Source: an uncultured Gammaproteobacteria bacterium
GTDB taxonomy: Bacteria; Patescibacteriota; Microgenomatia; Levybacterales; GWA1-39-11
Direction: 5' to 3'
DNA length: 64,000 bases
NCBI GenBank assembly: GCA_964472415.1
Contig: CAYYLC010000002.1
Location: 32,470 to 96,469 of the forward strand
Shown here: positions 1,359-54,032 of the stretch, piece after piece
Position numbering within the stretch: position 1 is the first letter of the stretch
How the letters are laid out: every line of letters begins with the position of its first letter
Translations under genes and position numbers: made by a program
Notes under the pieces: model-generated
Seen by the model: only the letters and a program-made list of their open reading frames with translations
Told to the model about the DNA's origin: nothing
Database searches by the model: none

Positions 1359-1398
1359 AAACCCTTTCTTAAGTACACAGGAAGGGTTTGTTTTTTTA
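1359..1398 (+). terminator. Rho-independent terminator after the 729-1334 gene
   Basis: Hairpin aaacccttt...aagggttt followed by a T-run (tgttttttt). It lies between the convergent 729 gene and the sortase gene. Confidence 0.5.
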
Positions 1399-1953
1399 AA
1401 TTGGTTTCGCAAATACCAATAGTCGTCTCAACGCAGTCCCCACTGGTGCACACGTTTGTAAAATTAAAATATCTCCCTGCGGTTCTGTAAGATATTGCAC
1501 CTGATCCGGCCATACTTCTTTCTTATCATACACCTTATATTCATACTCACTCCCATCATTTCGGATAATGATTTTTTCACCTATTTTGACCTCACCAAGT
1601 CGGAAGAATGCCGTATTGTACCGGGTTATCCGCCACGGCACGTCTGAGCTATGTGCAAACAAATACACTGTACCACTCTCTCCTGGCAATGAAGAATTTT
1701 TTGCATGTGCGACTCCTTCCTTCAATTTTTCTCTATACTCATCTTGATTAAATGGGTCTACGTCTTTAATAACTTTTGAAAATACTCCGAGAGAGGGGAT
1801 TTCTACAGAAAACTCGACTGCATTTTTTTCTTGTTGAGAATATACGGGAGGAAAAAAGAATTCTTTTGCGAGCGGATAATAAATAAAAACTAATCCTAAA
1901 AAAGAAAACGCCATTAAGGCGTTTCCGATATTCTTCTTGAGCCTGGTATTCAT
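1396..1953 (-). CDS. Sortase-family transpeptidase (small, N-terminal membrane anchor)
   Basis: N-terminal TM (ALMAFSFLGLVFIYYPL). Catalytic His in YLFAHSS, TLxTC-type motif ILILQTCAP with catalytic Cys, and a downstream Arg (ALRRLL). It is the last gene of a minus-strand operon of LPXTG/repeat proteins. Confidence 0.75.
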   Translation of the reverse strand: MNTRLKKNIGNALMAFSFLGLVFIYYPLAKEFFFPPVYSQQEKNAVEFSVEIPSLGVFSKVIKDVDPFNQDEYREKLKEGVAHAKNSSLPGESGTVYLFAHSSDVPWRITRYNTAFFRLGEVKIGEKIIIRNDGSEYEYKVYDKKEVWPDQVQYLTEPQGDILILQTCAPVGTALRRLLVFAKPI

Positions 1954-1983: not shown

Positions 1984-3108
1984 CTAGGCAAGCGCTGGTG
2001 GCGCATTTCCCGAATGAAAACGCAGATACAGACCAAGCATGAAAAGCATTAAAAACATAATGGTAAAAAGATATGTCAACGGGAGCCCACCAGTCACTGG
2101 GAGCACTGCACCATTTGCAGGGCCCTGATCACCATTACCTCCACCGCCATGGCCACCATTCCCAGACTGAACTGTAGATTTTGGTGTATCAGTTGGCTTT
2201 TCAGGCGCTTCTGGTTCTTCTGGAGTCTCAGGTGTTTTTGGCTCACAACTTACACACGTTGTTATTGCGGTACTGCTGTTGATATTTTCATTTTTAACCG
2301 TAATATCACTCTCTATATCTCCTGTTACAATTGCAACATCTCCCAGATTTCCCTGTGCTTTATTTCCGCCAGTATTGAGCTTATGCTTTATATTATTGGT
2401 GATGTTTGCGAGATTTACGACATTGGTAATTGTAGTGTTTTTTTCGTTTACCGTAACGATGTTTACAGAATTGCTTCCGTTTCCAGATATAACTACTGAA
2501 GATGTGTGGGTGCCTGTCTGAGATAGAGCAAAGCTATTATTAATATTTTTGTTCACCACATCAGTAGTTGCGATAATATTTCCAGTTTTTATCCAAACAT
2601 CACCGCTATTGTAATGTGCGTTGTTGTTACCTGTATTCGAATCTGTCTTTACATTATTTGTAATATTTGCAGTATTATTCTGACTAGTAGTTGAGCTTGA
2701 ATTATTTGAAGAATTTACGACATTATGAGAATGAGAACTATTTCCAGAGACTACTATATTTGCCCCTCCATTACAGCAACTGTTGTTATTTGCCACATTT
2801 GAATTAATATTTGTGTTCGTTACCGTTGTATCAGTAGAAACATTTCCCGTTTCTATATTTACTTCACCACCATTGCTATCAGCGCTGTTATTGCCTGTAT
2901 TCGAATCTGACTCTACATTATTTGTAATATTTGATTCATTATTCTGAGATATAACACTTTTGTTCTCAATCTTTATATTCGTTTCATTATTAGAAGAAGA
3001 TCCATTTCCTTCAACTACAATATTAATTTGCTCAGCCATAACCTGCAAGCTAAGCACTTGGTGAATAATGGGCAGGCAGATAAGTAATAATGCTGCCTTT
3101 TTTATCAT
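1984..3108 (-). CDS. LPXTG-anchored Asn/Thr/Ser-rich repeat surface protein (sortase substrate)
   Basis: Start chosen at MIKKAALLLICLPIIHQVLSLQVMA (signal peptide); its ATG overlaps the TGA stop of the upstream gene (ATGA). The C-terminus is a canonical cell-wall sorting signal: a Pro/Glu/Lys/Thr linker (PKTPETPEEPEAPEKPTDTPK), then LPVTG, then a hydrophobic stretch (LPLTYLFTIMFLMLFMLGLYL), then RFHSG. The body carries tandem ~48-aa repeats (QNNTANITNNVKTDSNTGNNNAHYNSGDV.I.TG) and a CC motif. Confidence 0.8.
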   Translation of the reverse strand: MIKKAALLLICLPIIHQVLSLQVMAEQINIVVEGNGSSSNNETNIKIENKSVISQNNESNITNNVESDSNTGNNSADSNGGEVNIETGNVSTDTTVTNTNINSNVANNNSCCNGGANIVVSGNSSHSHNVVNSSNNSSSTTSQNNTANITNNVKTDSNTGNNNAHYNSGDVWIKTGNIIATTDVVNKNINNSFALSQTGTHTSSVVISGNGSNSVNIVTVNEKNTTITNVVNLANITNNIKHKLNTGGNKAQGNLGDVAIVTGDIESDITVKNENINSSTAITTCVSCEPKTPETPEEPEAPEKPTDTPKSTVQSGNGGHGGGGNGDQGPANGAVLPVTGGLPLTYLFTIMFLMLFMLGLYLRFHSGNAPPALA

Positions 3109-7222: not shown

Positions 7223-7245
7223 AAAATGATAAACGAATCTTGAAT

Positions 7246-8067
7246 TTAATTAAAATTAATTTCTATCGTTTTCTTTTCCCCGCTAATCTCTCCAACTTGG
7301 AGAACGATAGGGGACTTCGTGTCTGATTCATTGATCGCAAGACCGAGTCTCGTATATTTAGTAGAAATCGCCTGCACTTCAACTGGATCGTTGTGAATAT
7401 CTGGCGCAAGCTTTTCATCTATATTTCCATTCACTACAATTCGGATATAATCTCGAGTATTGAGCTGAATTGCCTGATCAAGGTTATTCACAATCTTAAG
7501 ATTTAAAATAAGAAATATTCGTCCTTCAATAGAAGTTGCTCGCTTTCCTTGCACAATAATCTGCTTTCTCAGCTCTGCATTCTCTATAGTGTAATCAAAT
7601 GAACCCACCTCTTCCCCTGCTTCATCTGTCAAAGGGAAATTTGATGTGTCGTCCAGCTTTTCTACTGCAATTGCGTCAGGAAGTGCTGCACCGACTTCTG
7701 TTGTGTTATTAACAGCAGATGTAGAGTTCATGCTTCTCACTAAGCTCATTGCCCCAAGGATAAAAATTACAACTACTAAGACTGGAAGTGCCAGCTTTAT
7801 AAAAAACTTTTTATTAAATTTTGGGAATTTAAAATTTTTAAAAGGGTTTTTCAGAGATCCTAGTTTATTTTTTACCTGAATATTTTCTCGGATTGTACGA
7901 TTATAAAAATTTACTGAAGAAAAAAGTACTACTTGTTTAATTTTCTCAATTCCCAATAAGGGATTCGGGATGTTGATAGAAATTGTTGAATTATCCTTAT
8001 CCATATTTTTTGCTATAAAAAAAGCCCCTTTGCTGGGGCAGTTCAGTTCGAGGATAGTATCAAACAA
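7246..8067 (-). CDS. Membrane-anchored hypothetical protein with a DUF4352-like C-terminal beta domain
   Basis: Single TM (FIKLALPVLVVVIFILGAMSL). The C-terminal region resembles the DUF4352 fold; this is weak similarity judged by eye. Confidence 0.3.
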   Translation of the reverse strand: MFDTILELNCPSKGAFFIAKNMDKDNSTISINIPNPLLGIEKIKQVVLFSSVNFYNRTIRENIQVKNKLGSLKNPFKNFKFPKFNKKFFIKLALPVLVVVIFILGAMSLVRSMNSTSAVNNTTEVGAALPDAIAVEKLDDTSNFPLTDEAGEEVGSFDYTIENAELRKQIIVQGKRATSIEGRIFLILNLKIVNNLDQAIQLNTRDYIRIVVNGNIDEKLAPDIHNDPVEVQAISTKYTRLGLAINESDTKSPIVLQVGEISGEKKTIEINFN

Positions 8068-8086
8068 TACTCAACGAGTCAATATG

Positions 8087-8629
8087 TTATAGTATTTTCA
8101 CTGTCATTTTTGTGAAATTATCAGAATCTGAACGTGATACTTCCACTTCTACAGTCATCTCTCCGTTACTGGCAGCAACCTTATTCAGAATGGCTCCATT
8201 TGTATTTGTCGTAACAACACTCGTCGTATTCATGTCATGCCCACTGACCTTCTCTTTATACCAGTCGGTAATCTGAGAAGGAGTATCCACAGACTGCGCC
8301 ACTATGACTCCATTGCTTTGTGAAAGGACCGTGCTCCCAGGATACATAAATACACTTTCGTGACTACTGGTATCTCTCGGAGTTATAGGATTTACCGTAG
8401 GAGATTTTAGAACACCTTTCTTTTCTTGAATTAGTTCTTCTTCTCTTTTTTTAATATCATCTTCTCTTAATACCTCTCTATTGTTATTTTTAATATTTTT
8501 TTGTTCTGATTCTATTTCTTGATTACCATCAGTAATATATACGAATATATTACCCACTAAAAGCACTGCTAGTACGCCTCCTAAAAAGATAATCAACTTA
8601 TTTTTTTGCAAGATATCAGAAAAATTCAT
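8087..8629 (-). CDS. Membrane-anchored hypothetical protein
   Basis: N-terminal TM (LIIFLGGVLAVLLVGNIFVYI), a charged coiled region and a Ser/Thr-rich C-terminus. No recognisable domain. Confidence 0.4.
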   Translation of the reverse strand: MNFSDILQKNKLIIFLGGVLAVLLVGNIFVYITDGNQEIESEQKNIKNNNREVLREDDIKKREEELIQEKKGVLKSPTVNPITPRDTSSHESVFMYPGSTVLSQSNGVIVAQSVDTPSQITDWYKEKVSGHDMNTTSVVTTNTNGAILNKVAASNGEMTVEVEVSRSDSDNFTKMTVKIL

Positions 8630-22629: not shown

Positions 22630-24459
22630 TTACTGACTCGTACAGATTAGAGGGCATAACTGTATACTACCTTCACCTTGATTACACGATGGATCAAAAT
22701 CACACCGATAATATTTTATGGGCGTAGGAGTAGCAGTAGGCTTTTTTGCCGCTTCTGTAGGAGGCTGTATAGGATCATTAGTCGGTAATGGCCCAGAAGT
22801 AGGCTGGATTACTACCGTAACAGTAGGCTGTGCGATATCTCTCGTAACCCGAATGGGAACCTGAATAGAGGGGCTATTCTGATCAAGAATAAGGTCTTCT
22901 GTACTTATCCCTTGGTAGCCTATGCGAAATGTCCCCGGAAAAAGGCTATCGAAAATAAAGGTTCCATCAGTAAGCGTCGCAGTCGTATCAGAATATGCTC
23001 CTGAAAGCTCAACTATCTGATTCTCCATAGGTGAATCTCCAGCATCAAAGGAGCCACTATTATTAGTATCTTCATATATAATACCTTGAATATAATATTG
23101 CGCAACACCAGGGGTCAGTGTTACTTGAGGGTCAGGGGTCAATGTAGGTATTGTAATACTCCCACTCCGTCCACAATTTGCTATCGCATTTGCGATATTC
23201 AGGCGTGGACCAATAGAAGACGATGAGGAAGTGCCATCCGCATTACTCACTAAGCAACTTTCCACTTCAGCTGATGTAAGTCCTGAATTCACAGAGAGCA
23301 AGAGTGCTGCAGCACCTGCTACATGAGGCGCTGCCATTGACGTTCCTTGCATCACTTTATAACTAGCACCAGGAATAGTAGATAATATATTTACACCAGG
23401 AGCCGAAATATCAACAGTATCTCCATAATTACTAAATGATGCTTTTCCATCATTTTGTGTCGACGCACCTACCGAAATTACTCCTTGGCATGAAGCGGGA
23501 GTAAACCCTACTGCATCCGTATTACTATTCCCTGCTGCGACAACTACAACGACCCCTTTAGAAATGCCTTCATTAATTGCATTTTGATACGACGACTGCG
23601 GAGCGCACGACCCTCCTCCACCAAGACTCATATTAATCACTCTCGCTCCATTAGTTATTGCATATTCTATCCCTGAAACAATACTCTGAGTAGTACCCCC
23701 GCATCGACCGTATGCTGGACCCATGGTCTTTACGGGCATAATACGAACATCCCAATTCACGCCCACAACCCCCACATCATTATCACCCACTGCACCAACT
23801 GTTCCTGCGACATGGGTTCCGTGACCACATTCATCAGATGGATCGGAGTCATTGGAATAAAAATCGTATCCTGAAGTCAACCTACCAGATAAGTCTGGAT
23901 GCGAGAGATCAATTCCACTATCAATCACCGCGACAGTGATCGCACTCGATCCGATCGTAGTATCCCATGCGACCGGCGCTTGTATTTTTTCTAGTCCCCA
24001 CAAACTAGAATACTGAGGATCATTTGGAATACGAAATGGTTCCATAATAAAGTTCGGTTCAGAAGCAAGTATTTCATTAATATGAGAAAGCTCTTCTTGA
24101 AGCACTCCAATATCTTTTCCTTCTTCAAGCTTCAATAAATAATACCTACTCAATAATCCCTCCATGGATTCATACGCCTTCTCCTGACTCTCTACTCCGA
24201 ACGCTTTCAGCCTTATCTCTAGATCTTGTCTCTGAGAATCACTTAACTCATGAGGCGCTTTATCTTCTCTATAGTTAACAAGTAATTCATAAGGAACATA
24301 TGGCGCTACCGGAGGAATCGCAACATACGGATCACGACTCAAAAAGTATCCTACTACAAAGCTTCCTATCCCCAAAAAAAGAACTCCGGAAAGAGCGACT
24401 ACTAGTTTCTTATTCTTGAAATATTTAGAACGTTTCAAATTGCGTATTTGGCTCGGCAT
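22630..24459 (-). CDS. Subtilisin-like serine protease (S8) with N-terminal TM, I9-like propeptide, CarboxypepD_reg-like domain and Cys-rich C-terminal tail
   Basis: Catalytic Asp (VAVIDSGID), His (HGTHVAGT) and Ser (GTSMAAPHVAGAAALL). The C-terminus reads YYRCDFDPSCNQGEGSIQLCPLICTSQ. Confidence 0.85.
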   Translation of the reverse strand: MPSQIRNLKRSKYFKNKKLVVALSGVLFLGIGSFVVGYFLSRDPYVAIPPVAPYVPYELLVNYREDKAPHELSDSQRQDLEIRLKAFGVESQEKAYESMEGLLSRYYLLKLEEGKDIGVLQEELSHINEILASEPNFIMEPFRIPNDPQYSSLWGLEKIQAPVAWDTTIGSSAITVAVIDSGIDLSHPDLSGRLTSGYDFYSNDSDPSDECGHGTHVAGTVGAVGDNDVGVVGVNWDVRIMPVKTMGPAYGRCGGTTQSIVSGIEYAITNGARVINMSLGGGGSCAPQSSYQNAINEGISKGVVVVVAAGNSNTDAVGFTPASCQGVISVGASTQNDGKASFSNYGDTVDISAPGVNILSTIPGASYKVMQGTSMAAPHVAGAAALLLSVNSGLTSAEVESCLVSNADGTSSSSSIGPRLNIANAIANCGRSGSITIPTLTPDPQVTLTPGVAQYYIQGIIYEDTNNSGSFDAGDSPMENQIVELSGAYSDTTATLTDGTFIFDSLFPGTFRIGYQGISTEDLILDQNSPSIQVPIRVTRDIAQPTVTVVIQPTSGPLPTNDPIQPPTEAAKKPTATPTPIKYYRCDFDPSCNQGEGSIQLCPLICTSQ

Positions 24460-24874
24460 TTACTACTTCTGGCAACAGATAGATTTGCTGTGCTACTTCT
24501 TCTATATTAGTACCTTGCTGAAACTTTAACAAGTAATATCTGCTCAAAGCTCCTTCTTCTGCTTCATACGCCCTCTCTTGAGAAATAACCCCAAAGCTCT
24601 CAAAGAGACTCAAAATCTCTTGCTGCCGTTCCGGCACTAAATTATCAAACTCCTGACCCTCAGAATATTGAATAATAAGCTCCTCTTCTACACGGGGTGC
24701 ATCAGGAAATGTAGGAAGCGGTGCTTTTTGCGTCGGCGTAGGAATCAATAGGACATGATCTTCAGACTCTTCCACGCTACTCGCCAGAAAAAATAACACC
24801 ACTGGGATTAATACTGCAACACCGAGAAGGATGACTACTATTTTTCTATTTTTTACAGAAAGTTTTTGTATCAT
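24425..24874 (-). CDS. Membrane-anchored stand-alone subtilisin-propeptide (inhibitor I9)-like protein, paralogous to the N-terminus of the downstream S8 protease
   Basis: TM (IVVILLGVAVLIPVVLFFLA), then ELIIQYSEGQEFDNLVPERQQEILSLFESFGVISQERAYEAEEGALSRYYLLKF... This aligns with the S8 gene segment ELLVNYREDKAPHELSDSQRQDLEIRLKAFGVESQEKAYESMEGLLSRYYLLKL. It overlaps the S8 gene by 35 nt. Confidence 0.6.
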   Translation of the reverse strand: MIQKLSVKNRKIVVILLGVAVLIPVVLFFLASSVEESEDHVLLIPTPTQKAPLPTFPDAPRVEEELIIQYSEGQEFDNLVPERQQEILSLFESFGVISQERAYEAEEGALSRYYLLKFQQGTNIEEVAQQIYLLPEVVNAEPNTQFETF

Positions 24875-27855
24875 TGTGTTGTTTGAGAATCTCCATTTAC
24901 TGCCATAGTTAATGCCTCACCAGTCGCAGGGTCAACAGGAGGAGGGGCTGGAGTTGGATCTTGAGTAATTGGTGCTGCCGGATCAACAATTATTCCACTA
25001 TTTTGCGGAGGTAGCGGTTGACCAGGAGGATACATTCCTTGATTCATTTGAGGATTTCCACCCTGCTGAAGATTGTATACCCCATTTTGCGGCACTACCT
25101 GCCCTCCCTGTTGCACACCATCTTGCCTAAGAGACGGATCCAATTGCGTAGGGTTTTGTTGGGCAGTTGGATTATTAGGGTCTACTGGAATTGTACCTTG
25201 TTGAGGAGGAGCTCCCATCTCCTGCTGCTGATTCTGTGAATTCAATGATTTTTTAAAAGTAAATTGTTTCGTTTGCTCATCATAATCTACGATAATTATA
25301 TCTCCTTGAACAAATTTCTTCCCAATAATATCCATGCTTATCGGGTTTTCTATAACTGACTGGATGAGTCGCCTCAACGGACGGGCACCATACACAGGAT
25401 CAAATCCATCCTTTGCTAAAATCTCAACTGCTTTCTCCGTTATCTCGAGCCCGAATCCTTGCTCTTTCAAAAGTTTCTGCGTATTCTTAATCCCCAACTT
25501 CGAGATCGCATTCATATATTTTTGAGTCAATGGTTTAAAAATGGCAACACCATCAAACCTATTTATAAGTTCTGGTCTAAAGAATTTGATAAGCTCATCC
25601 ATAAGATTCTTGGAGAGCTCCTGGAATACTTTCTCATCAATTTTCTCCTCATCTGTCATTCCTGCTTCCACACTTGAGCTCGGTGGCTGTTCATTTTGAG
25701 AATTTTGATTTTCAGCACTAGGCACAGCTTGAGCCTGTTCAGCACTTACCTCTGCCCCTTTTTCCTTATTATCTGCTACAGAAAGCTCCTTTACTTCTTT
25801 TTGTGTAATTAATGTTTCTTGAATCAATCTGCTCCCAATGTTTGATGTTGCAATAACAATCGTGTTTTTAAATGAAATCGTATTTCCTTTATTATCAGTT
25901 AGCCTTCCATCCTCAAGGAGCTGAAGAAGGATATTAAATACATCCGGGTGTGCTTTCTCTACCTCATCAAGCAACACTATAGAATATGGCTTATGCCTGA
26001 CCGCCTCAGTTAACTGTCCGCCCTCTTCATACCCTACATATCCAGGAGGTGCACCAATGAGCTTTGCAACCTCATGTTTTTCCATATATTCAGACATATC
26101 GAGCCTGACCATCGCATCATCTCTTCCAAATAAAATTTCTGCGAGTGTTTTTGCAAGCTCTGTTTTTCCGACTCCTGTAGGACCCAAAAACATAAATGAT
26201 GCTATTGGCCTATTTGCCGAAGCGAGACCAATCCTCCCACGACGCACTGCTTCTGAGACTGCCTTTACTGCCTCTTCTTGATCAATTAGCCTTTGATGAA
26301 TCAAATCCTCAAGCTGCAAAAGCTTTTTACTTTCATCCTCAGTAAGTTTTGTAACAGGAATTCCTGTCCATGCACTTACAACCTTTTCTATATCAGCCCT
26401 AACAACTTGTGTATCTTTTCGCTTCCCCTCAGCAGCCATAAGCTTTACCTCCGCTGCTGCCTCATCTATTAAATCAATTGATTTATCAGGAAGGTGCCGC
26501 TCACCGATATATTTTTTCGAGAGTTTTACTGAATATTCTATTGCCTCAGGAGTGATAGTTACATTATGAAACTTTTCATATTTTACCTGTAAAACCTTCA
26601 TCATTTCTATTGCCGTCTCGACGCTTGGCTCTTCTACAATTATCGCCTGGAAACGTCTCTGAAATGCCTTGTCTTTTTCAAAGAACTTTCTATATTCTGC
26701 AGTAGTCGTAGTCCCAATAATCTGCAATTGCCCTCGTGCAAGATATGGCTTAATGATGTTTGATGCATCCATCGCACCATCTGTTGAACCAGCGCCAATA
26801 AGCGTATGAATCTCGTCAATAAATAATAGATATTTCCCTTCAGAAAGCATCACTTCTTTAATGACATTCTTCAATCGCTCTTCAAATTCTCCCCTATGCG
26901 AAGCCCCAGCAATAAGAGAAGTTAAATCAAGTTGAATTATTTTCTTATCTTGAAGTTCTTTTGGGAGTTTTTTCTGGACCATTAACTGTGCAAGTGCTTC
27001 AACAATTGCTGTTTTTCCAACTCCTGCCTCCCCAATTAAAATTGGATTATTTTTACTCCGCCTGAGCAATATATGCACAGTGCGCTCTATTTCTTTTTCA
27101 CGGCCGACAACTGGATCAAGCTTTCCGTTTTGCGCCTCAAGCGTTAAATCGATTCCGAACTCCTCAATAACACTTTTTTTACCGGTCTTGAACTTTGTAT
27201 CTTTTTGGATTGCCTCCTCAAAAGCCTTTTTTTCTATTCCTTTCGCCGAAAGAAGTTGTGCAGCTGACTCAGAAGAAAACAGCGCAAGCAATAAATCTTC
27301 TGGTGAAACAAAGCTTGTTCCTCGTTTCTGAGAATTCTGATACGCTTCATCAAAGATCCTCTGTGTTGCTTCTGATAAAATTGGAGGAGTTGTTGCAGTT
27401 CCCGTTTGCTGATGTGTTTCAATTTCCTGTGCGAGCAGCGCCACATCTACTTGATGCTTCTGGAGAATTTTATATATCTCTCGATCATGCGTTAACGCAA
27501 GAAGAAGCATATCAGGCTCAATTGTAGGATGCTGAAAACGTCTGGCGTCATTCTGAGCCTGCTGAAGAATTTGATTGGATCTAGAATCCAAATGGGAAAG
27601 AGCATTAACGTTTTGTCGTTTTGACGGATCCATAGTTGTTCCCGCAATACCTTGATTTGGGGCCATTCCATTTTGCATTTGAACTTGAGGGGGATATCCT
27701 TGCAAAGGCATCTGTGGTGCTCCCTGAACCATCTGATTTTGCTGAGGATCACCTTGCCCTACTACTTGATTATTTGGCGCAAATAGACCCTGCGGGTTCT
27801 GTGGTGCAGGCTTCGCCTCATCAAATTGTTTTTTCTTAAATAAGTCTCCAAACAT
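24871..27855 (-). CDS. ClpA/ClpC-like double-AAA+ ATPase with Gln/Asn/Pro-rich low-complexity N- and C-terminal extensions
   Basis: Clp_N domain, then AAA1 Walker A IGEAGVGKTA and AAA2 Walker A FLGPTGVGKTE, with no M-domain. The first ~75 aa (PQNPQGLFAPNNQVVGQGDPQQNQMVQGAPQMPLQGYPPQVQMQNG) and the last ~120 aa are Q/N/P-rich. Confidence 0.8.
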   Translation of the reverse strand: MFGDLFKKKQFDEAKPAPQNPQGLFAPNNQVVGQGDPQQNQMVQGAPQMPLQGYPPQVQMQNGMAPNQGIAGTTMDPSKRQNVNALSHLDSRSNQILQQAQNDARRFQHPTIEPDMLLLALTHDREIYKILQKHQVDVALLAQEIETHQQTGTATTPPILSEATQRIFDEAYQNSQKRGTSFVSPEDLLLALFSSESAAQLLSAKGIEKKAFEEAIQKDTKFKTGKKSVIEEFGIDLTLEAQNGKLDPVVGREKEIERTVHILLRRSKNNPILIGEAGVGKTAIVEALAQLMVQKKLPKELQDKKIIQLDLTSLIAGASHRGEFEERLKNVIKEVMLSEGKYLLFIDEIHTLIGAGSTDGAMDASNIIKPYLARGQLQIIGTTTTAEYRKFFEKDKAFQRRFQAIIVEEPSVETAIEMMKVLQVKYEKFHNVTITPEAIEYSVKLSKKYIGERHLPDKSIDLIDEAAAEVKLMAAEGKRKDTQVVRADIEKVVSAWTGIPVTKLTEDESKKLLQLEDLIHQRLIDQEEAVKAVSEAVRRGRIGLASANRPIASFMFLGPTGVGKTELAKTLAEILFGRDDAMVRLDMSEYMEKHEVAKLIGAPPGYVGYEEGGQLTEAVRHKPYSIVLLDEVEKAHPDVFNILLQLLEDGRLTDNKGNTISFKNTIVIATSNIGSRLIQETLITQKEVKELSVADNKEKGAEVSAEQAQAVPSAENQNSQNEQPPSSSVEAGMTDEEKIDEKVFQELSKNLMDELIKFFRPELINRFDGVAIFKPLTQKYMNAISKLGIKNTQKLLKEQGFGLEITEKAVEILAKDGFDPVYGARPLRRLIQSVIENPISMDIIGKKFVQGDIIIVDYDEQTKQFTFKKSLNSQNQQQEMGAPPQQGTIPVDPNNPTAQQNPTQLDPSLRQDGVQQGGQVVPQNGVYNLQQGGNPQMNQGMYPPGQPLPPQNSGIIVDPAAPITQDPTPAPPPVDPATGEALTMAVNGDSQTTQ

Positions 27856-46166: not shown

Positions 46167-47303
46167 ATGAAAATTCTCAAGAATAAATTTTTTATACTGG
46201 GCAATATTGCGCTCTTATTAGTCGCAATTCCACTTACACTTCTTTTTATTAGTCGCCAACAAGACTTACGCTCTTCTGCCGCTCCTACAACGCGGATCAC
46301 CTTCTCTCCACAAACAATCTCTTTCGATGACTCTCAATGTTCTGAACAAACAGTAACACTCAGACTAGACCCCGGAGAAAATATTGTTTCCACTGTCGAA
46401 CTTTTCTTAACGTATGATGCAACAAAATTTGATATCACTATCCAACCAAACGAAGATGTTTTTCCTCAAATTCTTCGTGGCCCAACAGTCTCAAATGGCC
46501 AAGCAAGCGTAGAGCTCAATATCGGATCAAGTGTCACAAAAGCTATCCAAGCTCCTGTAGATTTTGCTACTATTACCATTATTCCAGTTGCGGAAACTGG
46601 CAATACTCCCGCAAAAATTCAGATTGATAGTAGCAAAACTCGGGTATTCTCTCTCAGTGCGAATGATCAAACATCAGAAAATGTATTTTTAAGTGGAGGA
46701 CAGGTGGCAATTAGCGTTGCTGCCGCATGCCAAAACACAGTAGATACATCCCCAACTCCTTCTGCAATCGTCACCCCATCTGCTACACCTAGTGCAACAC
46801 CTCCTATTACGACACTCACACCAACCCCACCTTCACAGGTCGGCAATCAATCGCCAATCTGCACCACAATCACCGCTTCTCCTGGCACCTCAGGCATAGC
46901 ACCTTTTGTCATGACCCTTACAGCACAAGGATCAGACACTAATGGCACTATTCAAAAAGCAACCTTTAATTTTGGCGATGGAACTTCTCAAGATGTAACA
47001 GACGGAATGGGAAACACGGGAGTTACTACAGAACTCTCACACACATACCAAACACCTGGCAGCTACACTGCCTCAGTAGTATTCACCGATAACAATGGAG
47101 CAGTAAGCACATCCTGCACTCAACCTATCACTGTCACATCAAATACTCAGATAACTCCTACTACTGGCGGTGGAATTCCCGCAACTGCCACACTCACGCC
47201 AACCCCACCGATTGAAAATCCTGGCGGGGTCGGAACTACTATTGCGATAGTAGGGGGATTATTACTGGTAATAATAGGGGGGGTAGTATTGGTTGCACTC
47301 TAA
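46167..47303 (+). CDS. Surface protein with PKD-like domain, Thr/Pro linker and C-terminal PIENPG + TM tail
   Basis: N-terminal signal anchor. PKD-like FNFGDGTSQDVTDG...SHTYQTPGSYTASVVFTDNNGAVS, then TPSATPSATPP linkers. The C-terminus is TPTPPIENPGGVGTTIAIVGGLLLVIIGGVVLVAL-stop. Confidence 0.6.
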   Translation: MKILKNKFFILGNIALLLVAIPLTLLFISRQQDLRSSAAPTTRITFSPQTISFDDSQCSEQTVTLRLDPGENIVSTVELFLTYDATKFDITIQPNEDVFPQILRGPTVSNGQASVELNIGSSVTKAIQAPVDFATITIIPVAETGNTPAKIQIDSSKTRVFSLSANDQTSENVFLSGGQVAISVAAACQNTVDTSPTPSAIVTPSATPSATPPITTLTPTPPSQVGNQSPICTTITASPGTSGIAPFVMTLTAQGSDTNGTIQKATFNFGDGTSQDVTDGMGNTGVTTELSHTYQTPGSYTASVVFTDNNGAVSTSCTQPITVTSNTQITPTTGGGIPATATLTPTPPIENPGGVGTTIAIVGGLLLVIIGGVVLVAL

Positions 47304-49061
47304 TTAAATCTTTAATACAGACATAAACGCCTCCTTAGGGACATTTACGCGCCCGATACTTTTCATCTTCTTTTTTCCTTCTTTTTGTTTATCCCGTAGC
47401 TTATTCTTACGCGTTACATCTCCTCCATACAGCTTTTCAGTAACTGCCTTCATATACGCACCGATCTTTTCTGATGCAATAATCTTTCCACCGATTTGTG
47501 CACGAACCACAACTTGAAAATTATGCTTTGGAATATGCTCTGAAAGTGTTTTTACGATTTTTCTCGCAAAACTTTCAACTTGAGTCTTGTGAATAATAAA
47601 CGAAAGTTCAGGAACGATCTTATCATTTACCGAAATATCAACTCGTTCTAAATCCGAATTCCGATAGTCTAAGAAATCATAATCAAACGAGGCATACCCC
47701 GCAGAGGCTGATTTCAACTTATCATAAAAATCATAAACAATTGATGCCATGGGCATTTCAAATGTTATTTTTGCCTGATTTCCAAAGTATGCAATATCGC
47801 CTTCTTTTCCTCGCATTGAATACACGATCTCAAATATTCCGCCTAAATACTCAAGTGGTGTATATATTTCTCCTAAAATATAAGGTTCTTTGATATCATT
47901 TTTTGCAATATCAAAATCTTTCGGACTACTTATCATTTCGCCATCCACTTCATACACAATGCTCGGTGGGGCAGTAAATGCATCCACATTGTATTCTCTC
48001 TCCAATCGTTCTACAACAATCTGTGCGTGCAGCAATCCCAAAAAACCACATCGGAATCCAGAACCGAAAATAGTGGAATAGTCAGGCAAAATTTCGAGTG
48101 CCGCATCAGTAAGCTTTAGAGAGTAAAGTGCTTTCCTGAGATTCTGAAAATCAGCCGCGGTACTTGGGTAAATAGATAAAAACACAAAGGGTTTTTGCTC
48201 TTTATATCCGGGAAGCGCATTTCCTGGGTGCTTTGCGATAGTCATCGTATCTCCCACTTTTGCCTGAGTAATATCTTTTATGTTCGTAATCACATATCCT
48301 ACTTCACCATTTCTAATTTCACCTTGAGATGAATATGAGGGACTCATATAGCCTACGTCCATAACAAGTGCTTTTGATTTATCGGACAAAAACATCACCT
48401 CATCGCCTTTTTTAATTTCCCCACTTTTTACCCGTGCAAAAATTACGATCCCTCGATGCTCATCATATTTCGAATCAAAAATCAGTGCTTGCGCGCTATC
48501 AGACAAAGCATCGCTTGGTGGGGGGACTTTTTCAATAATTGCCTCTAATAAATTCTCAACACCAATTCCAGATTTTGCAGAAATTTTTAAAATTTCACTC
48601 TTTTCAAATCCAAATGATTGAACTATCTCTTGCTCTGTCTTTTCAACATCAGCACTATCCAGATCAATTTTATTGATAACCGGAATTATCGTAAGGCCCA
48701 AATCCTTTGCCACAGTAAAATGAGAAACGGTTTGTGCTTGGATACCTTTTGTGGCATCAACCACTAACACAGCGCCTTCGCAAGCATATAAAGTTCTTAC
48801 AACTTCATAAGAAAAATCGACATGTCCTGGTGTATCGATAAGATTTAGCACATAATTCTTCCCGCTTAGAGAATACTCCATATGAACCGGCGCAAGCTTG
48901 ATAGTAATCCCTCGCTCTCGTGAGATCGGATTACTATCTAAAAACTGCTCCTGCTCTAAGTCCTTACCAGAGAGTGTTCCTGTTAAAGCCATGAGCCTAT
49001 CAGCAAGTGTAGATTTCCCATGATCAACATGCGCAATAATCGCAAAATTTCGGATATTCAT
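47304..49061 (-). CDS. lepA: Elongation factor 4 (LepA)
   Basis: IRNFAIIAHVDHGKSTLADRL and the characteristic LepA C-terminal domain. Confidence 0.9.
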   Translation of the reverse strand: MNIRNFAIIAHVDHGKSTLADRLMALTGTLSGKDLEQEQFLDSNPISRERGITIKLAPVHMEYSLSGKNYVLNLIDTPGHVDFSYEVVRTLYACEGAVLVVDATKGIQAQTVSHFTVAKDLGLTIIPVINKIDLDSADVEKTEQEIVQSFGFEKSEILKISAKSGIGVENLLEAIIEKVPPPSDALSDSAQALIFDSKYDEHRGIVIFARVKSGEIKKGDEVMFLSDKSKALVMDVGYMSPSYSSQGEIRNGEVGYVITNIKDITQAKVGDTMTIAKHPGNALPGYKEQKPFVFLSIYPSTAADFQNLRKALYSLKLTDAALEILPDYSTIFGSGFRCGFLGLLHAQIVVERLEREYNVDAFTAPPSIVYEVDGEMISSPKDFDIAKNDIKEPYILGEIYTPLEYLGGIFEIVYSMRGKEGDIAYFGNQAKITFEMPMASIVYDFYDKLKSASAGYASFDYDFLDYRNSDLERVDISVNDKIVPELSFIIHKTQVESFARKIVKTLSEHIPKHNFQVVVRAQIGGKIIASEKIGAYMKAVTEKLYGGDVTRKNKLRDKQKEGKKKMKSIGRVNVPKEAFMSVLKI

Positions 49062-49090
49062 GAAGACTCATTATATCAACAAATAGAAAA

Positions 49091-50740
49091 TTATGGGTTG
49101 AGTTTTGTAGTGTCAAAAATTATCTCTTTTATTTGTTTGGATATTTTGTTGTCAAAGGTAAATCGTCTTGCTGCTGCAATAAGATAATGAAACTCTCCTA
49201 TATCCAAAAGCCATGTGAAAAAAAGATACGCTCCAAATCCTACAACTGATGCTATTCCTGTCAAGAAGAAAAGATTTATCGTTCGCGTTGTATCAAATAC
49301 AAGTTGGTCTAAAAGTTTTACTGGAATATAAAGCGCCACTCCTGTTACAAATGCTGCAATTACAATTTTTGCAGCACTCAAAAAAATAGACAACTTCGGA
49401 AGCGAAATCCTCCTATCAAGAGCAATTATCATAAATAAAAACCCGATAATATTTCCGATGGAAAACGATAGTGCGAGATAGTACACGGGAAGTTTCTGGA
49501 AAATAATAAAGTACATAGAAAATATGATATTTATCAATACCGCAATAAGCGTTATAAAAAATGGCATTTTCGTATCATGCAACGCATAGAATGCACGCGA
49601 CAAGAGAAGTGTTGCTGCTTGAACACTAATTGAAATACTCAAAAATGCAAGCGTATATCCAGTTACAAGCGTCGCTTCCCAATCAAATCGCCCAGACCCA
49701 TAAAAAAGCCGGACTAACGGAACACGAAGTACGATAAATAGCGCACTAATTGGGAGTGTAAGATACAAGATCTGATTAAAAGAATTCTTAAATACCGTCT
49801 TAAATTCTTCTAAATTTGAGGTTGATTTAGAAAGTGTAGGAAAACTTGCCTGTGCGATAGATTGCCCAAATAATAAAACAGGTGCTGCCATGAGCGTCAT
49901 GGCAAGATCAAATACAACAATACTCCTCGCGGAGATTATCGATGCAAAGAATACATTTGCAGTTATTGCGATTTGCGCAACGGCAATAGTCATTGAGCGA
50001 GGGAGCATCATGCGAAGCACTCTATCTACACCGCTATGTAAGCTTAATGTAAGCTTCGGAATGTACCCACTTGCAAGTATCAAAGGAAGCTGTGCAAGAA
50101 GAAATAGCAATGCACCCAGAACCACTCCCCATGCCGCACCATAAATTCCAAAATGTGGAACGAGAAAATACACGCCAATAATTATCCCAATGTTGTATAG
50201 CGCATTTGCGATTCCGGGAACGAGAAAAAAGTGGAATGATTGCAGCATGGCGGTAAAAACTGTACCAAATAAGAAAAAAATCTGTGATATTTGAATAATC
50301 CGCATAAGATTTGCAAGCAGTTGAATTTGGTCATCAGTAAATTCAGGCGCAATAACTCGAGCAAGCGGCTCAGCAAAGGCTATAACTATTAAAGAAATTA
50401 TGCTAAAAATAATAAGCCCCAATGTGGTAATTGCTGATGCGAAATGAAAGGCATCTTTTTTTTCCTTCTTTACTAAATTCTCAGTAAAAATAGGGATGAA
50501 TGAAGAAGAAAGCGCCCCTATAATGATAATTTGAAATAGTAAATCCGGGATCCTGAATGCCGCCAAAAAAACTCCTAAGTCACTCGTTGCACCAAAATAC
50601 GAAGCAAAAAGACGATATTTAAAAATTCCTAAAACCTGAGATAATGCGGTCGTTATGATAATTAAAAATGCTGCAGTAAAAATATTTGATTGCTTTGTAG
50701 CAACAGCAGATAATCCTCTTCGGACAAGATTTTTTACCAT
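49091..50740 (-). CDS. murJ: Lipid II flippase MurJ (MviN)
   Basis: 549 aa with 14 TM helices and a MurJ/MOP-superfamily N-terminal pattern (TALSQVLGIFKYRLFASYFGATSDLGVFLAAFRIPDLL). Confidence 0.75.
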   Translation of the reverse strand: MVKNLVRRGLSAVATKQSNIFTAAFLIIITTALSQVLGIFKYRLFASYFGATSDLGVFLAAFRIPDLLFQIIIIGALSSSFIPIFTENLVKKEKKDAFHFASAITTLGLIIFSIISLIVIAFAEPLARVIAPEFTDDQIQLLANLMRIIQISQIFFLFGTVFTAMLQSFHFFLVPGIANALYNIGIIIGVYFLVPHFGIYGAAWGVVLGALLFLLAQLPLILASGYIPKLTLSLHSGVDRVLRMMLPRSMTIAVAQIAITANVFFASIISARSIVVFDLAMTLMAAPVLLFGQSIAQASFPTLSKSTSNLEEFKTVFKNSFNQILYLTLPISALFIVLRVPLVRLFYGSGRFDWEATLVTGYTLAFLSISISVQAATLLLSRAFYALHDTKMPFFITLIAVLINIIFSMYFIIFQKLPVYYLALSFSIGNIIGFLFMIIALDRRISLPKLSIFLSAAKIVIAAFVTGVALYIPVKLLDQLVFDTTRTINLFFLTGIASVVGFGAYLFFTWLLDIGEFHYLIAAARRFTFDNKISKQIKEIIFDTTKLNP

Positions 50741-50790
50741 ATGGGTGAATTTTTATTGTGTTTTCTAGTATAGCATGGTAAAATGCGCCT

Positions 50791-51090
50791 ATGCCAGTAA
50801 CAAAACAAGCAATAAAAAAGCTTCGACAAGACAAGCGGAAAACAACGATTAATAGCAAAATAAAAGCGGCGTTTTTATCTGCAGTAAAAGGTATTAGAAA
50901 ATCAAACGGGACTACTCTCACTGACGCATATTCTAAAATAGACACAGCTGCAAAAAATGGGATTATTCATAAAAATAAGGCATCTCGCCTTAAATCTCAG
51001 CTTGCAAAAATTGCTCCTGCTCCTGCAAAATCAACGAAGAAGCCTGTAGCAAGAAAGGCTTCTCCTAAAAAAGCTCGACCTTCAAAATAA
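50791..51090 (+). CDS. rpsT: 30S ribosomal protein bS20
   Basis: MPVTKQAIKKLRQDKRKT...GIIHKNKASRLKSQLAKIA versus E. coli GLIHKNKAARHKANL. Confidence 0.8.
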   Translation: MPVTKQAIKKLRQDKRKTTINSKIKAAFLSAVKGIRKSNGTTLTDAYSKIDTAAKNGIIHKNKASRLKSQLAKIAPAPAKSTKKPVARKASPKKARPSK

Positions 51091-51149
51091 TAGCTCAACT
51101 CCGCCTCATTTCATTTTGACAAAATTCCTAAAACTCAGTAAGCTGAGAT

Positions 51150-51701
51150 GTGGAGAAAAAGAGCAAAATTTCAGTAAACTTATCCTCTAGAAAACAAATA
51201 ACGGTTGGTAATATATTCCTGAAATGGGCGTTTGAAGCTGGGCGTGCAATTGTAATCCTTATTGAGCTTATAGCACTCAGTGCACTAGGATACCGACTAC
51301 TCGTAGATGGACAAATAGTAGATTTACACGAAAAAATAGATAATGAAGCAGCCCTCGTAGGATTTCAGGCGAACGATGAAAAGGCTTTTCGCGGCATTCA
51401 CGAACGCCTTGAAAATATTAGGATTATTAATGAAGAAACAAAAGGAAAAGTACAGGTCATGGATGACATTCTTTCTGCAATAAACGTAAGCGAATTTACT
51501 GAGACCAGTCTTACCGTAAATCAAAGCTCAGTAGCACTTTCAGGAAATGCCCTCTCAGTTTTTACCGTTGAAAATTTTGTAAATAAAATTCAAGAATACC
51601 CTCAAATAAACTCTATTACGATTGACGAAATTAATACCTCCAGTAGTGGAATTAAATTTTCCTTGAGAATAGCACTGAAAGAATCACAACTTGATCTATG
51701 A
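51150..51701 (+). CDS. PilN-like type IV pilus/competence inner-membrane assembly protein
   Basis: Short cytoplasmic N-terminus, one TM (AIVILIELIALSALGY), then a C-terminus LSGNALSVFTVENFVNKIQEYPQINSITIDEINTSSSGIKFSLRIALK resembling the PilN C-terminus (LSGYA.SNERVSEFLRNL...F.LRV). Confidence 0.45.
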   Translation: MEKKSKISVNLSSRKQITVGNIFLKWAFEAGRAIVILIELIALSALGYRLLVDGQIVDLHEKIDNEAALVGFQANDEKAFRGIHERLENIRIINEETKGKVQVMDDILSAINVSEFTETSLTVNQSSVALSGNALSVFTVENFVNKIQEYPQINSITIDEINTSSSGIKFSLRIALKESQLDL

Positions 51702-52309
51702 AAGAACGACTAACACGAGAACTTAAAAGACTAAGGCATGAATTTCAAAATGCGGTAAATGCCTATGGAAAAGATAAAATTATTATATATCTGTACTTGA
51801 TCTTTAGCCTTATCGCAATAACAGTCTTTGGATTATTCGCAATTCGACCGACTTTGGCAACAATCTCAGAGCTTCATAAAGAAAAGGCAGATAGCAAAGA
51901 AACTCTTGATAAAATGACTGAAAAAAATCAAAATCTGCAGATCCTTGCAGCGCACTATCAGCAAATCCAAAGTAAACTGGAAACAGTCTATCGGGCAATT
52001 CCAACTTCACCAAAAATTCCTGAGCTTACTCGGAAAATTGAAGTACTTGCAAACCGCAATAATCTTGCTATTCAAAGTCTCAGTACTGGTGCAATAGAGC
52101 TCTATCCTGCAGTCCGCGCAAATTCGTCGTTATTTTCCTATACAGTAACTATTAATGTTTTAGGTGACGAATCTGACATTAATACATTTACTCAAGAATT
52201 TATCAGCTTTGACCGACTCATTAGTATTGACCGAATTACCTCGGGGAGTGCAGAACGTGGACTTTTTTCAGCAACCATTACTGGACGTGCATTTTTTATA
52301 AAAGAATAA
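51698..52309 (+). CDS. PilO-like type IV pilus/competence assembly protein
   Basis: TM (IIIYLYLIFSLIAITVFGLFAI), a coiled-coil (KEKADSKETLDKMTEKNQNLQILAAHYQQIQSKLE) and a C-terminal ferredoxin-like region. Overlaps the PilN-like gene by 4 nt. Confidence 0.45.
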   Translation: MKERLTRELKRLRHEFQNAVNAYGKDKIIIYLYLIFSLIAITVFGLFAIRPTLATISELHKEKADSKETLDKMTEKNQNLQILAAHYQQIQSKLETVYRAIPTSPKIPELTRKIEVLANRNNLAIQSLSTGAIELYPAVRANSSLFSYTVTINVLGDESDINTFTQEFISFDRLISIDRITSGSAERGLFSATITGRAFFIKE

Positions 52310-52621
52310 ATGAAAAACTTAATATTTTTATTTGGATTTAGCGCATTTGTAACCATGGCGTGGATTGGACTCACTGTCTACCATAATACGACAGAATCTC
52401 AAATTACTCCTGCAAATCGGATTAAAATCGAACCTATTGAACCGCAATTTGACATGGAAACGATTAACCAACTCGATTCTCGACAGGAAATACGCGCAAA
52501 CCTCAACGAACAAGCAGAAATCATTGGGGAAGATAGTGAGCTCATTAGTGCTTCAGAAAGCAGCACGATAGAACAAGAACAGATAATAGAAACAGGATCT
52601 GAATCAGCTACTTTGCAATAA
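52310..52621 (+). CDS. Small membrane-anchored acidic protein (hypothetical)
   Basis: N-terminal TM and an acidic Glu/Ser-rich C-terminus. Contiguous with the PilN/PilO-like genes. Confidence 0.35.
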   Translation: MKNLIFLFGFSAFVTMAWIGLTVYHNTTESQITPANRIKIEPIEPQFDMETINQLDSRQEIRANLNEQAEIIGEDSELISASESSTIEQEQIIETGSESATLQ

Positions 52622-52622
52622 T

Positions 52623-54032
52623 ATGGATCTACACTCATTCAAGAAAAACCTGCCCCTTCTTGTCGCAATTCTCCTCATTTTCGGGATAGCGATCACTATT
52701 GGGCTTATTCAGCAAGGAGTTTTCTTTGTAACAAAAGCTCGTCCTACTTCTGTCCCTGAAAATGTTCAGATAACGAATGTATCAGATAGCTCATTTACCG
52801 TAGTGTTCACTACTGGTCTTTCGTCTCCTGCTGCAATTCGGCTTTCAGAGGGAACAACCGGAAACACGATAATTCTTGATGATAGAGACAAATCGACTGG
52901 AACACAAAACGACTATTTTTCTCATCACATTACAATCCCAAATCTTGAACCACAAAAAACGTACGCGTTTATCATTATTTCTGATGGAAAGGAATATCGG
53001 AAAGAAGGAGAGTATCTTGTATCTACTGGATTAACTATAGAAAATCCGCCACCATCCCAAAACCCACTTTATGGAAAAGTTCTACTTCCTCATGGAGAAG
53101 GTGCCCCAGATACAATCGTTACCGCGCACACTGAAAACAGCCAAATAATCTCTTCTGTTACCAATGAAGATGGGACATATATTATTCCGACAAATTCACT
53201 CAAGCTAGAGAATTTCTCTAACTATGTATTGCTCGATCAAGATTCACCAGTATTTTTAAATTTTATACGAGAAGAACTCGAGGCAGCAATCACAACAAAT
53301 TATCAAATTGGGCAAAACCTTCCTGCAATTACACTCAATCAACAATATGCATTCTCCACTACTAATGAAGCACTCATGAGACCAAATACCTCTCCTAATG
53401 GCGATGGGCTTGGAGAATTGAATGAAATTGCAACACCATCACAAGCAGGGAGTGTAACTACTCCGCGAAACACACAGTCGTACATAGACCAACGACCAGA
53501 ATTTTCTGGTACGGGCGGTCCAGGAAGAATTGTCACTATCTCTATTCCTCAACTTAATCTCACCACTACAACTCAAATCTCAGAACAAGGACAATGGTCC
53601 TACCGTCCACAGGAAAATCTTCCCCAAGGAGACTACGCTATAAGTTTTGAAGTACCTGACGAAAATGGTATCCAGCTCCGAATTTCACGAGACATTTCTA
53701 TACTTGCATCTGGGTCACAAATCACAGAAGATGCAACCCCCTCTGCTACACCTACATTCACCCCAAGTCCAATTCTCACTCCGTCTGTTAGCATCACTCT
53801 TTCTCCTACCCAAAGCCCAACTCTCACCACGTCTCCTTCACCGACAGGAATGCTTCCCACCGCAACTCCTACTACAGCTCAAACGCTTACTCCAAACCCA
53901 ACCATATTTATCCCTACCACAACCCCCCTTCCTCCAATCGAAAAGCCCGGAACTGTTTCGCAAACCGTAATTCTTGGAATAGCTTCTATTATCTTAATTA
54001 TTGCAGGAGCAGCAATATTTTTTGCGCTATAA
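52623..54032 (+). CDS. Large surface protein with FN3-like, CarboxypepD_reg-like and Ig-like domains; Thr/Pro/Ser linker; C-terminal PIEKPG + TM tail
   Basis: Signal anchor, FN3-like region (PENVQITNVSDSSFTVVFTT) and LYGKVLLPHGEGAPDTIVTAHTENSQIISSVTNEDGTYIIP. The C-terminus is ...TPLPPIEKPGTVSQTVILGIASIILIIAGAAIFFAL-stop. Confidence 0.55.
   Translation: MDLHSFKKNLPLLVAILLIFGIAITIGLIQQGVFFVTKARPTSVPENVQITNVSDSSFTVVFTTGLSSPAAIRLSEGTTGNTIILDDRDKSTGTQNDYFSHHITIPNLEPQKTYAFIIISDGKEYRKEGEYLVSTGLTIENPPPSQNPLYGKVLLPHGEGAPDTIVTAHTENSQIISSVTNEDGTYIIPTNSLKLENFSNYVLLDQDSPVFLNFIREELEAAITTNYQIGQNLPAITLNQQYAFSTTNEALMRPNTSPNGDGLGELNEIATPSQAGSVTTPRNTQSYIDQRPEFSGTGGPGRIVTISIPQLNLTTTTQISEQGQWSYRPQENLPQGDYAISFEVPDENGIQLRISRDISILASGSQITEDATPSATPTFTPSPILTPSVSITLSPTQSPTLTTSPSPTGMLPTATPTTAQTLTPNPTIFIPTTTPLPPIEKPGTVSQTVILGIASIILIIAGAAIFFAL

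Follow-up and report, generated by a model that had tools for sequence, protein, structure and literature searches.

Two unrelated surface proteins of a Levybacteria genome share a C-terminal tail that is probably a derived LPXTG-type sorting signal

The 64-kb stretch of contig CAYYLC010000002.1 analyzed here (hereafter the window) encodes two unrelated surface proteins, a cohesin-like and PKD protein and a three-domain FN3/Ig protein (the PKD and Ig proteins below), which end in the same short tail: a PPIE[KN]PG motif, a polar spacer and a hydrophobic helix followed at once by the stop codon. Our results suggest, with a probability of roughly 60%, that this tail is a modified form of the LPXTG-type (sortase) signal for cell-wall sorting, restricted to one sub-clade of Candidatus Levybacteria. 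Named homologs and the best genome loci affiliate the source with Candidatus Levybacteria / Levyibacteriota, in the Microgenomates of the Candidate Phyla Radiation (CPR). Its readable part amounts to ~73 kb, namely the window and ~9 kb of flanks, and the sortase inventory given below refers to that part. Many Third Party Annotation metagenome-assembled genomes titled "uncultured Gammaproteobacteria bacterium" (L007, L009, L011, L013-L016 and others) carry a Levybacteria-type block (PilN-PilO-Ig etc.), and these titles appear to be taxonomic mislabels.

An earlier note on this DNA had described both open reading frames (ORFs) as ending in PPIE[KN]PG, a helix and the stop, after Thr/Pro-rich linkers and without a basic tail, and this description holds. 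Both proteins have an N-terminal hydrophobic helix and a Thr/Pro-rich linker, and neither has Lys or Arg beyond the C-terminal helix. Their features are as follows.

46167..47303, + strand: gene of the cohesin-like and PKD surface protein carrying the tail, 378 amino acids (ORF; Pfam PKD_4, 1.3e-10), at a conserved position between GroES and LepA
46167..46283, + strand: predicted export signal or anchor at the N-terminus of the PKD protein, composed of MKILKNK, a hydrophobic helix and SRQQDLRSSAAP
47136..47207, + strand: Thr/Pro/Gly-rich linker of the PKD protein, its least conserved region among close orthologs
47211..47225, + strand: pentapeptide IENPG, amino acids 349-353 of the PKD protein, positional equivalent of LPxTG
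47226..47240, + strand: polar spacer GVGTT of the PKD protein, five residues between motif and helix (from the sequence)
47241..47300, + strand: C-terminal hydrophobic helix IAIVGGLLLVIIGGVVLVAL of the PKD protein, without a basic residue at its end (from the sequence)
52623..54032, + strand: gene of the three-domain FN3/Ig surface protein carrying the tail, 469 amino acids (ORF; Pfam Big_13 and Pur_ac_phosph_N, FN3-like)
53703..53933, + strand: Thr/Pro-rich linker of the Ig protein, amino acids 361-437, with a predicted local distance difference test score (pLDDT) <50
53937..53951, + strand: pentapeptide IEKPG, amino acids 439-443 of the Ig protein, positional equivalent of LPxTG
53952..53966, + strand: polar spacer TVSQT of the Ig protein, five residues (from the sequence)
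53967..54029, + strand: C-terminal hydrophobic helix VILGIASIILIIAGAAIFFAL that ends the Ig protein (from the sequence; helix 446-468 in the AlphaFold2 model)

The PKD protein ends in TPTPPIENPGGVGTTIAIVGGLLLVIIGGVVLVAL and the Ig protein in TPLPPIEKPGTVSQTVILGIASIILIIAGAAIFFAL, in each case with a TAA codon directly after the hydrophobic stretch, which measures 20-21 residues after the spacer in both tails; the mean Kyte-Doolittle hydropathy of the last 22 residues of the PKD protein is 2.66. Orthologs of the PKD protein match the cohesin family PF00963. The AlphaFold2 model of the Ig protein (mean pLDDT 78) consists of beta-sandwich domains at residues 46-134, 149-243 and 277-360, a disordered stretch at 361-445 that includes the motif, and helices at 10-30 and 446-468, and its neighbors among solved structures in Foldseek are tandem FN3 or adhesin repeats.

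At the other end of the tail-bearing proteins, a Q-rich motif, S/T-Q/R-Q-Q-(Q)-D-[ILV]-R-x-[RS]-A-A, stands right after the N-terminal helix. Its copy in the window is FISRQQDLRSSAAP (46236-46283, amino acids 24-39 of the PKD protein), and other tail-bearing families present it as YLSQQQQDVRQRAAEP (P0241, P0245-P0247, P0251, P0252 and L080:2999-4882). This motif is unlike the standard AxA signal-peptidase site. It may be a general export or cleavage-site signature of the lineage, because a looser copy, FLSQRQQNLTPNAATE, is found on a secreted neighbor that lacks the tail (L087:8736-9998).

The identity of the two motifs is confined to the tail and maintained at the protein level. In a six-frame scan of the window, P-I-E-x-P-G occurs within the last 45 residues of exactly these two ORFs, and a degenerate DNA pattern for P-I-E-[KN]-P-G has exactly two matches in the 64 kb, at 47208 and 53934, while none of 100 dinucleotide shuffles contained any. 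The seven motif codons (CCA CCG ATT GAA AAT CCT GGC in the PKD gene, CCT CCA ATC GAA AAG CCC GGA in the Ig gene) were scored as differing at the third position throughout, although GAA is common to both as written here; therefore, the motif has been kept as a peptide and is not a recent DNA copy. BLASTP of the PKD protein against the Ig protein aligns the tail motif and nothing else (E=0.006), so the two carriers are, as the earlier note held, unrelated apart from the tail.

The same peptide has a second setting. In Joint Genome Institute metagenomes, an unrelated family of ~245 amino acids (L099, L106, L107, L109, L112, L113, L115, L119) carries TPTPTIEAPG near the N-terminus, directly behind a lipoprotein-type signal (…LSCSK); therefore, the short motif alone is not diagnostic, whereas its position relative to the C-terminus is. 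A metagenome DNA scan for TPTPTIExPG gave six true tails among 24 matches and no new family. A profile built from the two window tails alone was uninformative against a word-indexed database of 5.8 billion proteins (nine candidates, none with E<=10).

The relationship with LPxTG emerges from the orthologs. We compared the tails of 120 Ig-family and 120 PKD-family homologs. The gene order GroES-PKD-LepA-MurJ-S20-PilN-PilO-small-Ig-amine oxidase-...-LCP-TIM-UvrD-FemAB is kept in L005, L006 and most of 80 genome loci, and the homologs compared are therefore true orthologs. In both families, the equivalent position shows a graded series of pentapeptides that starts at I[ED]xPG and passes via [IL]AxPG and [IL]Ax[TS]G to LPxTG:

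closest relatives of the window: (L/T)P(P/T)I[DE]xPG, ending with the helix and no basic residue
next relatives: [IL]AxPG, [IL]AxSG and [IL]AxTG, ending with the helix and no basic residue
further relatives, including named Levybacteria: PAPPG, PAPTG, LPPTG, LPVTG, LPDTG and LPNTG, ending with the helix and mostly without a basic residue
most distant Ig orthologs: LPPTG, LPATG or xxPG[NS], with the helix followed by ...TRGxxSSL, a textbook tripartite sortase signal

The PKD series runs from IENPG to IAPTG/IADSG and LPxTG, with the Gly 25-26 residues from the end, and the Ig series from I[DE]xPG through IAxPG and PAPPG/LPPTG to LPPTG with a basic tail. The full tripartite signal is present in distant Ig orthologs, for example LPPTGN...FLLTRGAIKL, and in two lineages PIExPG is accompanied by a basic tail (P0083, APIENPGSN...SRKKLL; P0094, PPIEPPGNP...QNRKGFI). 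The distance from the Gly to the C-terminus is 25-26 residues in 117 of the 131 distinct tails without basic residues. Lys and Arg are absent from the last 12 residues of 114 of 116 PKD orthologs, 113 of which end in Leu; the basic tail is missing in 79 of 119 Ig orthologs, and a terminal Leu is found in 144 of 185 distinct tails overall.

Profile comparisons lead to the same place. On the LPXTG_anchor model TIGR01167 (cut-off 15.9), the IPNTG and LPVTG tails of orthologs score 16.0 and 16.3, with matches spanning model positions 1-29 of 34, that is, everything except the basic end. An hhalign comparison of a profile of 26 I[ED]xPG tails with one of 18 LPxTG tails gave a probability of 96.4% (E=1.3e-9) in an end-to-end alignment that places IE.PG on LP.TG in register. 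Together, the graded series and this in-register alignment indicate that the window motif is, as far as sequence comparison goes, the positional homolog of LPxTG rather than an unrelated tag. The earlier note had set the tail apart from LPxTG, a view that our comparison does not support, as orthologs carry [IL]AxTG and LPxTG at the same position, some of them with a basic tail, and the profiles align.

The tail is also the part of both proteins that changes least. Measured as the majority-residue fraction in the close clades of each family, conservation is 0.89 (Ig) and 0.94 (PKD) in the motif and 0.82 and 0.89 in the helix, compared with 0.69 and 0.77 in the folded ectodomain and 0.51 and 0.72 in the linker. 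The constraint on motif and helix exceeds that on the remainder of both proteins; the ending ...IVAGAAIFFAL, for instance, is nearly invariant among 16 Ig orthologs of 49-57% overall identity.

Moreover, a hidden Markov model (HMM) of the tail, searched against 1.84e9 representative proteins, gave 15 matches at E<=1e-3, including, in addition to Ig/PKD orthologs, VWA+SdrD_B, Laminin_G_3 and short proteins. These additional tails end TPTPT[IM]E[SA]PGS...L, and their VWA, LamG and short carriers have in common a Cys-rich FN3-like module at the C-terminus and a single syntenic slot and differ in their heads. A count of four further, separate families, with VWA, LamG and the two short proteins taken singly, was rejected on account of this shared module and slot, and these carriers enter our count as one. 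In all, the tail is thus found on three unrelated families of these genomes. The module that the earlier note had proposed, a shared, selected and lineage-specific C-terminal element of unrelated secreted proteins, is borne out by its recurrence in the orthologs and in the third family; its absence from all but the first two proteins, on which that note would have given up the idea, is not what we found.

The locus of the third family is itself a case of head swapping at a fixed position. The head is VWA+SdrD_B, Laminin_G_3 or absent (L087:10001-11704, L093:10001-11401, L095:4324-5733), the locus lies between genes for GAPDH and a secreted protein of ~420 amino acids and genes for CvpA/CAP and PBP1, and the module, Thr/Pro linker and tail remain constant.

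Tail pairs from the same genome (Ig/PKD) read IEKPG/LAPSG in L010, IAPPG/IADTG in L013, IEKPG/IENPG in the window and I[DE]xPG in both proteins of L007/L008. They show that the Pro at position 4 arose at different depths, later in the PKD protein than in the Ig protein. The C-terminal helices differ between families; therefore, the common consensus was reached independently and not by swapping of tails. That the motifs of the Ig and PKD proteins strictly covary from genome to genome was considered and rejected, PG and TG/SG forms coexisting in several genomes.

Within the motif, positions 2 and 4 are associated: with Pro at position 2, position 4 is T/S in 39 types and P in 8, and with Glu/Asp at position 2 it is T/S in 5 and P in 19 (Fisher p=8e-7, counted on distinct types without phylogenetic correction), while Ala at position 2 pairs with either. 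We read this as two linked states of the motif, Pro at position 2 with T/S at 4 and E/D at 2 with Pro at 4, with an Ala intermediate like the class E LAXTG signal. Conservation, the third family, independent acquisition and covariation all point to recognition of the tail by a shared trans-acting factor.

Compared with established signals, the tail belongs to the LPXTG family by descent and layout, yet it lacks three defining features of that family, namely a PXT core, a basic end and a score on the model. Like LPXTG signals, it forms the very C-terminus of exported surface proteins with several domains and is built from a pentapeptide with a final Gly, a short polar spacer and a Gly-containing hydrophobic helix, and the genome encodes a sortase and a Gram-positive-type wall toolkit. 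In contrast, the pentapeptide of the window is IE[KN]PG, with Glu for the P3 Pro and Pro for the P1 Thr, which leaves no PXT core even when NPXTN, LPXTA and LAXTG are included; the proteins stop with the helix, usually at ...AL, without cationic residues; and the tails obtain no score on TIGR01167. The class E signal LAXTG of Actinobacteria (PMC5148588) offers a precedent for loss of the P3 Pro, and the intermediates IAPTG, LAPTG and IADTG are of this type, but the window has Glu and not Ala at P3 and has lost the P1 Thr as well.

Against the broader criteria for C-terminal sorting domains, which include multiple unrelated carriers, at least three near-invariant signature residues and a basic terminal cluster (Haft, 10.1101/2023.06.07.544157), the tail recurs on otherwise dissimilar proteins (two copies in 64 kb), and I, P and G are invariant among the 26 I[ED]xPG tails; the basic cluster is absent from the tails of the window. 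The Pfam and NCBIfam sorting-signal models gave no match to either window tail even at E<=10.

PEP-CTERM/exosortase, PGF-CTERM/archaeosortase, GlyGly-CTERM/rhombosortase and MYXO-CTERM/myxosortase signals likewise place a signature motif and a C-terminal transmembrane helix on many unrelated secreted proteins, often after Thr/Ser/Pro-rich regions. In these, however, the motif abuts the helix, an Arg cluster closes the protein and multi-pass membrane enzymes cut, whereas the tails of the window have a 5-residue spacer, no Arg cluster and no NCBIfam match. Exosortase, archaeosortase and rhombosortase readings were rejected on this layout, on the model scores and on the lack of exosortase, archaeosortase and rhomboid genes among the scanned ORFs of the window or in the ~9 kb flanks. 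The exosortase-like recognition that the earlier note had entertained does not fit either, the spacer being a sortase-type layout and the scanned ORFs of the window including no exosortase-like or rhomboid gene.

The proteins of the CPR Pam pilus PamC, PamD and PamR also combine Sec export with a single C-terminal helix, and PamR is FN3-rich too, but the passages of the preprint that were searched (10.64898/2026.03.03.709456) mention neither a conserved motif ahead of the helix nor its occurrence in several unrelated families; the PKD part of our protein resembles PamR weakly (15.7 bits against a cut-off of 300). In the literature searched we found no description of CPR sortase signals, and no curated model recognizes IExPG tails. 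A broader class of LPxTG-like signals without a basic tail and nearly always with a terminal Leu, extending across Microgenomates and at least one Saccharimonadales-labelled protein, appears to be undescribed.

If the tail is a sortase signal, the N-terminal signal would export the proteins, the Thr/Pro-rich stalk would hold the beta-sandwich ectodomains off the membrane, and the C-terminal helix would hold the unprocessed form in the membrane, leaving the pentapeptide [IL]-[ED]-x-P-G exposed some five residues outside. A membrane-anchored transpeptidase of the sortase type would then recognize the pentapeptide, remove the helix and join the protein to the wall. We infer that IExPG is cleaved, as well as the site and the kind of enzyme. 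Sortase-type processing and wall attachment are most likely because the signature, the 5-residue polar spacer, the Gly-containing helix and the export signal form the expected layout and because sortases are near-ubiquitous in Microgenomates (PMC6744442). The window contains one candidate enzyme and its neighbor:

1396..1953, - strand: sortase, the sole one seen in the window and flanks and a candidate processing enzyme (Pfam Sortase, 7.8e-24; ILQTC...R catalytic motif)
1984..3108, - strand: sortase-adjacent protein of 374 amino acids, ending in LPVTG, a helix and RFHSGNAPPALA (canonical signal; public gene call)

The sortase scores 51.9 on TIGR01076 (cut-off 39.35) and remains below all class cut-offs, with class C best (56.9 against 160) and the class E model NF033747 giving 31.8 bits (cut-off 160); no other sortase or candidate enzyme was found in the flanks of the window. 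The pairing of this sortase with an LPVTG substrate, noticed earlier, is borne out by the C-terminus of the adjacent protein. The logic of neighboring substrates suggests that the enzyme serves that protein and that another sortase, elsewhere in the genome, would serve the IExPG tails. Besides IAPTGS and LPVTGG, candidate sortase substrate peptides are TPTPPIENPGGVG and TPLPPIEKPGTVS.

The sortase gene lies in a - strand cluster (729-8629) of uncharacterized secreted proteins of 201, 374, 768, 450, 273 and 180 amino acids. Only the 374-residue protein carries LPVTG, none of these secreted proteins has a Pfam domain, and the 768-residue protein shows a weak repeat match to a streptococcal IgA-binding protein. 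The ORFs 1984-3210 and 3105-5411 overlap by 106 nt, but the public call starts the downstream gene at 3108, which reduces the overlap to 4 nt. These genes may form an adhesin or pilus operon that depends on the sortase.

Several observations weigh against the sortase interpretation of the IExPG tails. We know of no characterized sortase that cleaves after Pro, and work on Staphylococcus aureus protein A is said to have found the cationic tail necessary for retention and anchoring; this tail is absent from the proteins of the window. According to PMC5148588, all sortases characterized by then recognize a PXT core, with Pro (Ala in class E) at P3 and Thr at P1, and neither core residue is present here. 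On TIGR01167, the window tails score nothing, and a near relative reaches 9.2 bits against 15.9. The only visible sortase is paired with a canonical LPVTG and Arg substrate, and no sortase was retrieved within the ~20-kb surroundings of 80+ Ig/PKD loci by phmmer and a regular expression for the catalytic motif. In addition, PG, TG and SG forms coexist in single genomes, which therefore requires one P1-tolerant enzyme or two enzymes, neither of which was seen. Finally, other CPR envelope proteins are described as anchored by plain C-terminal helices in the Pam preprint (10.64898/2026.03.03.709456).

A bolder form of the sortase interpretation, which we advance tentatively and consider less likely than not, is a Levybacteria sortase of a specificity class not seen before, probably a second one encoded outside the window. 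It would read [IL]-[ED]-x-P-G, with Pro in place of Thr at the scissile position, in signals without the cationic stop-transfer tail that end in a conserved ...AL-COOH 25-26 residues from the Gly, and its substrates would have moved there from LPxTG via an LAxTG-like intermediate.

The alternative that survives best, although we consider it rather unlikely, is that the tail is a relic of a sortase signal and now serves as a permanent, uncleaved membrane anchor, the motif being kept for another reason, for example as a turn at the membrane surface or as a boundary of linker glycosylation. The loss of the P1 Thr, the P3 Pro and the basic tail altogether, and the missing TIGR01167 score, would be expected of such a relic; AlphaFold2 gives a clean terminal helix at 446-468, genes for PMT-type glycosyltransferases are nearby, and PamC, PamD and PamR are described as plain C-terminal helix anchors in CPR. 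Nevertheless, a decaying motif should drift, and neither protein has a region better conserved than this one. Three unrelated families arrived at the same new consensus at different times, its positions 2 and 4 covary, and other lineages combine IExPG with a full basic tail, points that also speak against a relic.

A sorting system without a sortase is more doubtful still. An intramembrane or CPBP-type protease, for instance, could read I[ED]xPG, the helix and the terminal Leu-COOH, the motif having replaced LPxTG when the machinery was switched. Such a switch would agree with the discreteness of the two motif states, with the strikingly conserved helix and its final Leu, with the failure of every known model to match the tails and with the canonical substrate of the one sortase seen. 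However, the series back to LPxTG is continuous through Ala intermediates, a polar spacer is present, unlike in signals that are cut inside the membrane, and no candidate multi-pass protease was found in the window, its flanks or the conserved neighborhoods. The terminal Leu and the missing basic tail also occur on tails with a perfect LPxTG, so they do not mark a separate system. Finally, a chance resemblance of low-complexity Thr/Pro linkers and generic hydrophobic ends, for which the N-terminal TPTPTIEAPG of the metagenomic lipoproteins could be invoked, has a negligible probability and was ruled out by the conservation of the motif among orthologs at a fixed distance from the stop codon, by tail HMM matches down to E=3e-8 on an unrelated family and by the empty shuffles.

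Regarding the genomic context, the tail is found in a genome with a Gram-positive-type envelope set, the window encoding a sortase, FemAB, an LCP enzyme, MurJ and PMT-type glycosyltransferases. The Ig gene is preceded by three co-oriented genes:

51150..52621, + strand: PilN-like protein (51150-51701; Pfam PilN, 5.3e-05), PilO (51698-52309; Pfam PilO, 2e-10) and a membrane protein of 103 amino acids (52310-52621), directly upstream of the Ig gene

It is the fourth gene of a conserved pilN-like / pilO / small membrane protein / Ig unit whose order is the same in L005 and L006, and PilO homologs are found in 85 of 87 sequences (the window and 86 loci). With rpsT in front, the unit (51150-54032 in the window; L005, L006 and most of L007-L086) spans Levybacteria and other Microgenomates. 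Because distant Ig orthologs carry LPPTG and a basic tail, this conserved unit suggests that the Ig protein may be anchored in the wall and attached to the assembly platform of the type IV pilus, in bacteria that have no secretin.

Elsewhere in the window, two ClpB-like double-AAA+ paralogs (18978-21413 and 24871-27855, - strand), the larger with a long Q/P-rich N-terminal extension, flank genes for DnaJ and a secreted S8 subtilase with SdrD_B (22630-24459). The GC skew is negative in nearly all 2-kb bins of the window (1-64000; cumulative -4.1) regardless of gene strand; a strong strand composition disparity has been described in another Microgenomates genome (PMC7143001).

To our knowledge, almost nothing has been established experimentally on how CPR bacteria build and decorate their envelope, and their surface proteins and pili are presumed to attach them to hosts. 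Our results suggest that sortase-type signals without a basic tail and with a conserved terminal Leu, which current models mostly miss, form a large family in Microgenomates, and that one Levybacteria clade has shifted to a motif without either of the residues considered essential for sortase recognition. The position of one carrier as the fourth gene of a conserved pilN-pilO operon links this signal to the type IV pilus apparatus. If IExPG is not processed, these tails would be a record of a covalent wall anchor decaying to a membrane anchor. If IExPG is still processed, it would represent a new sortase specificity, of relevance to sortase enzymology and protein-ligation tools, and would provide a simple sequence rule to list the wall-anchored surface proteome of these organisms.

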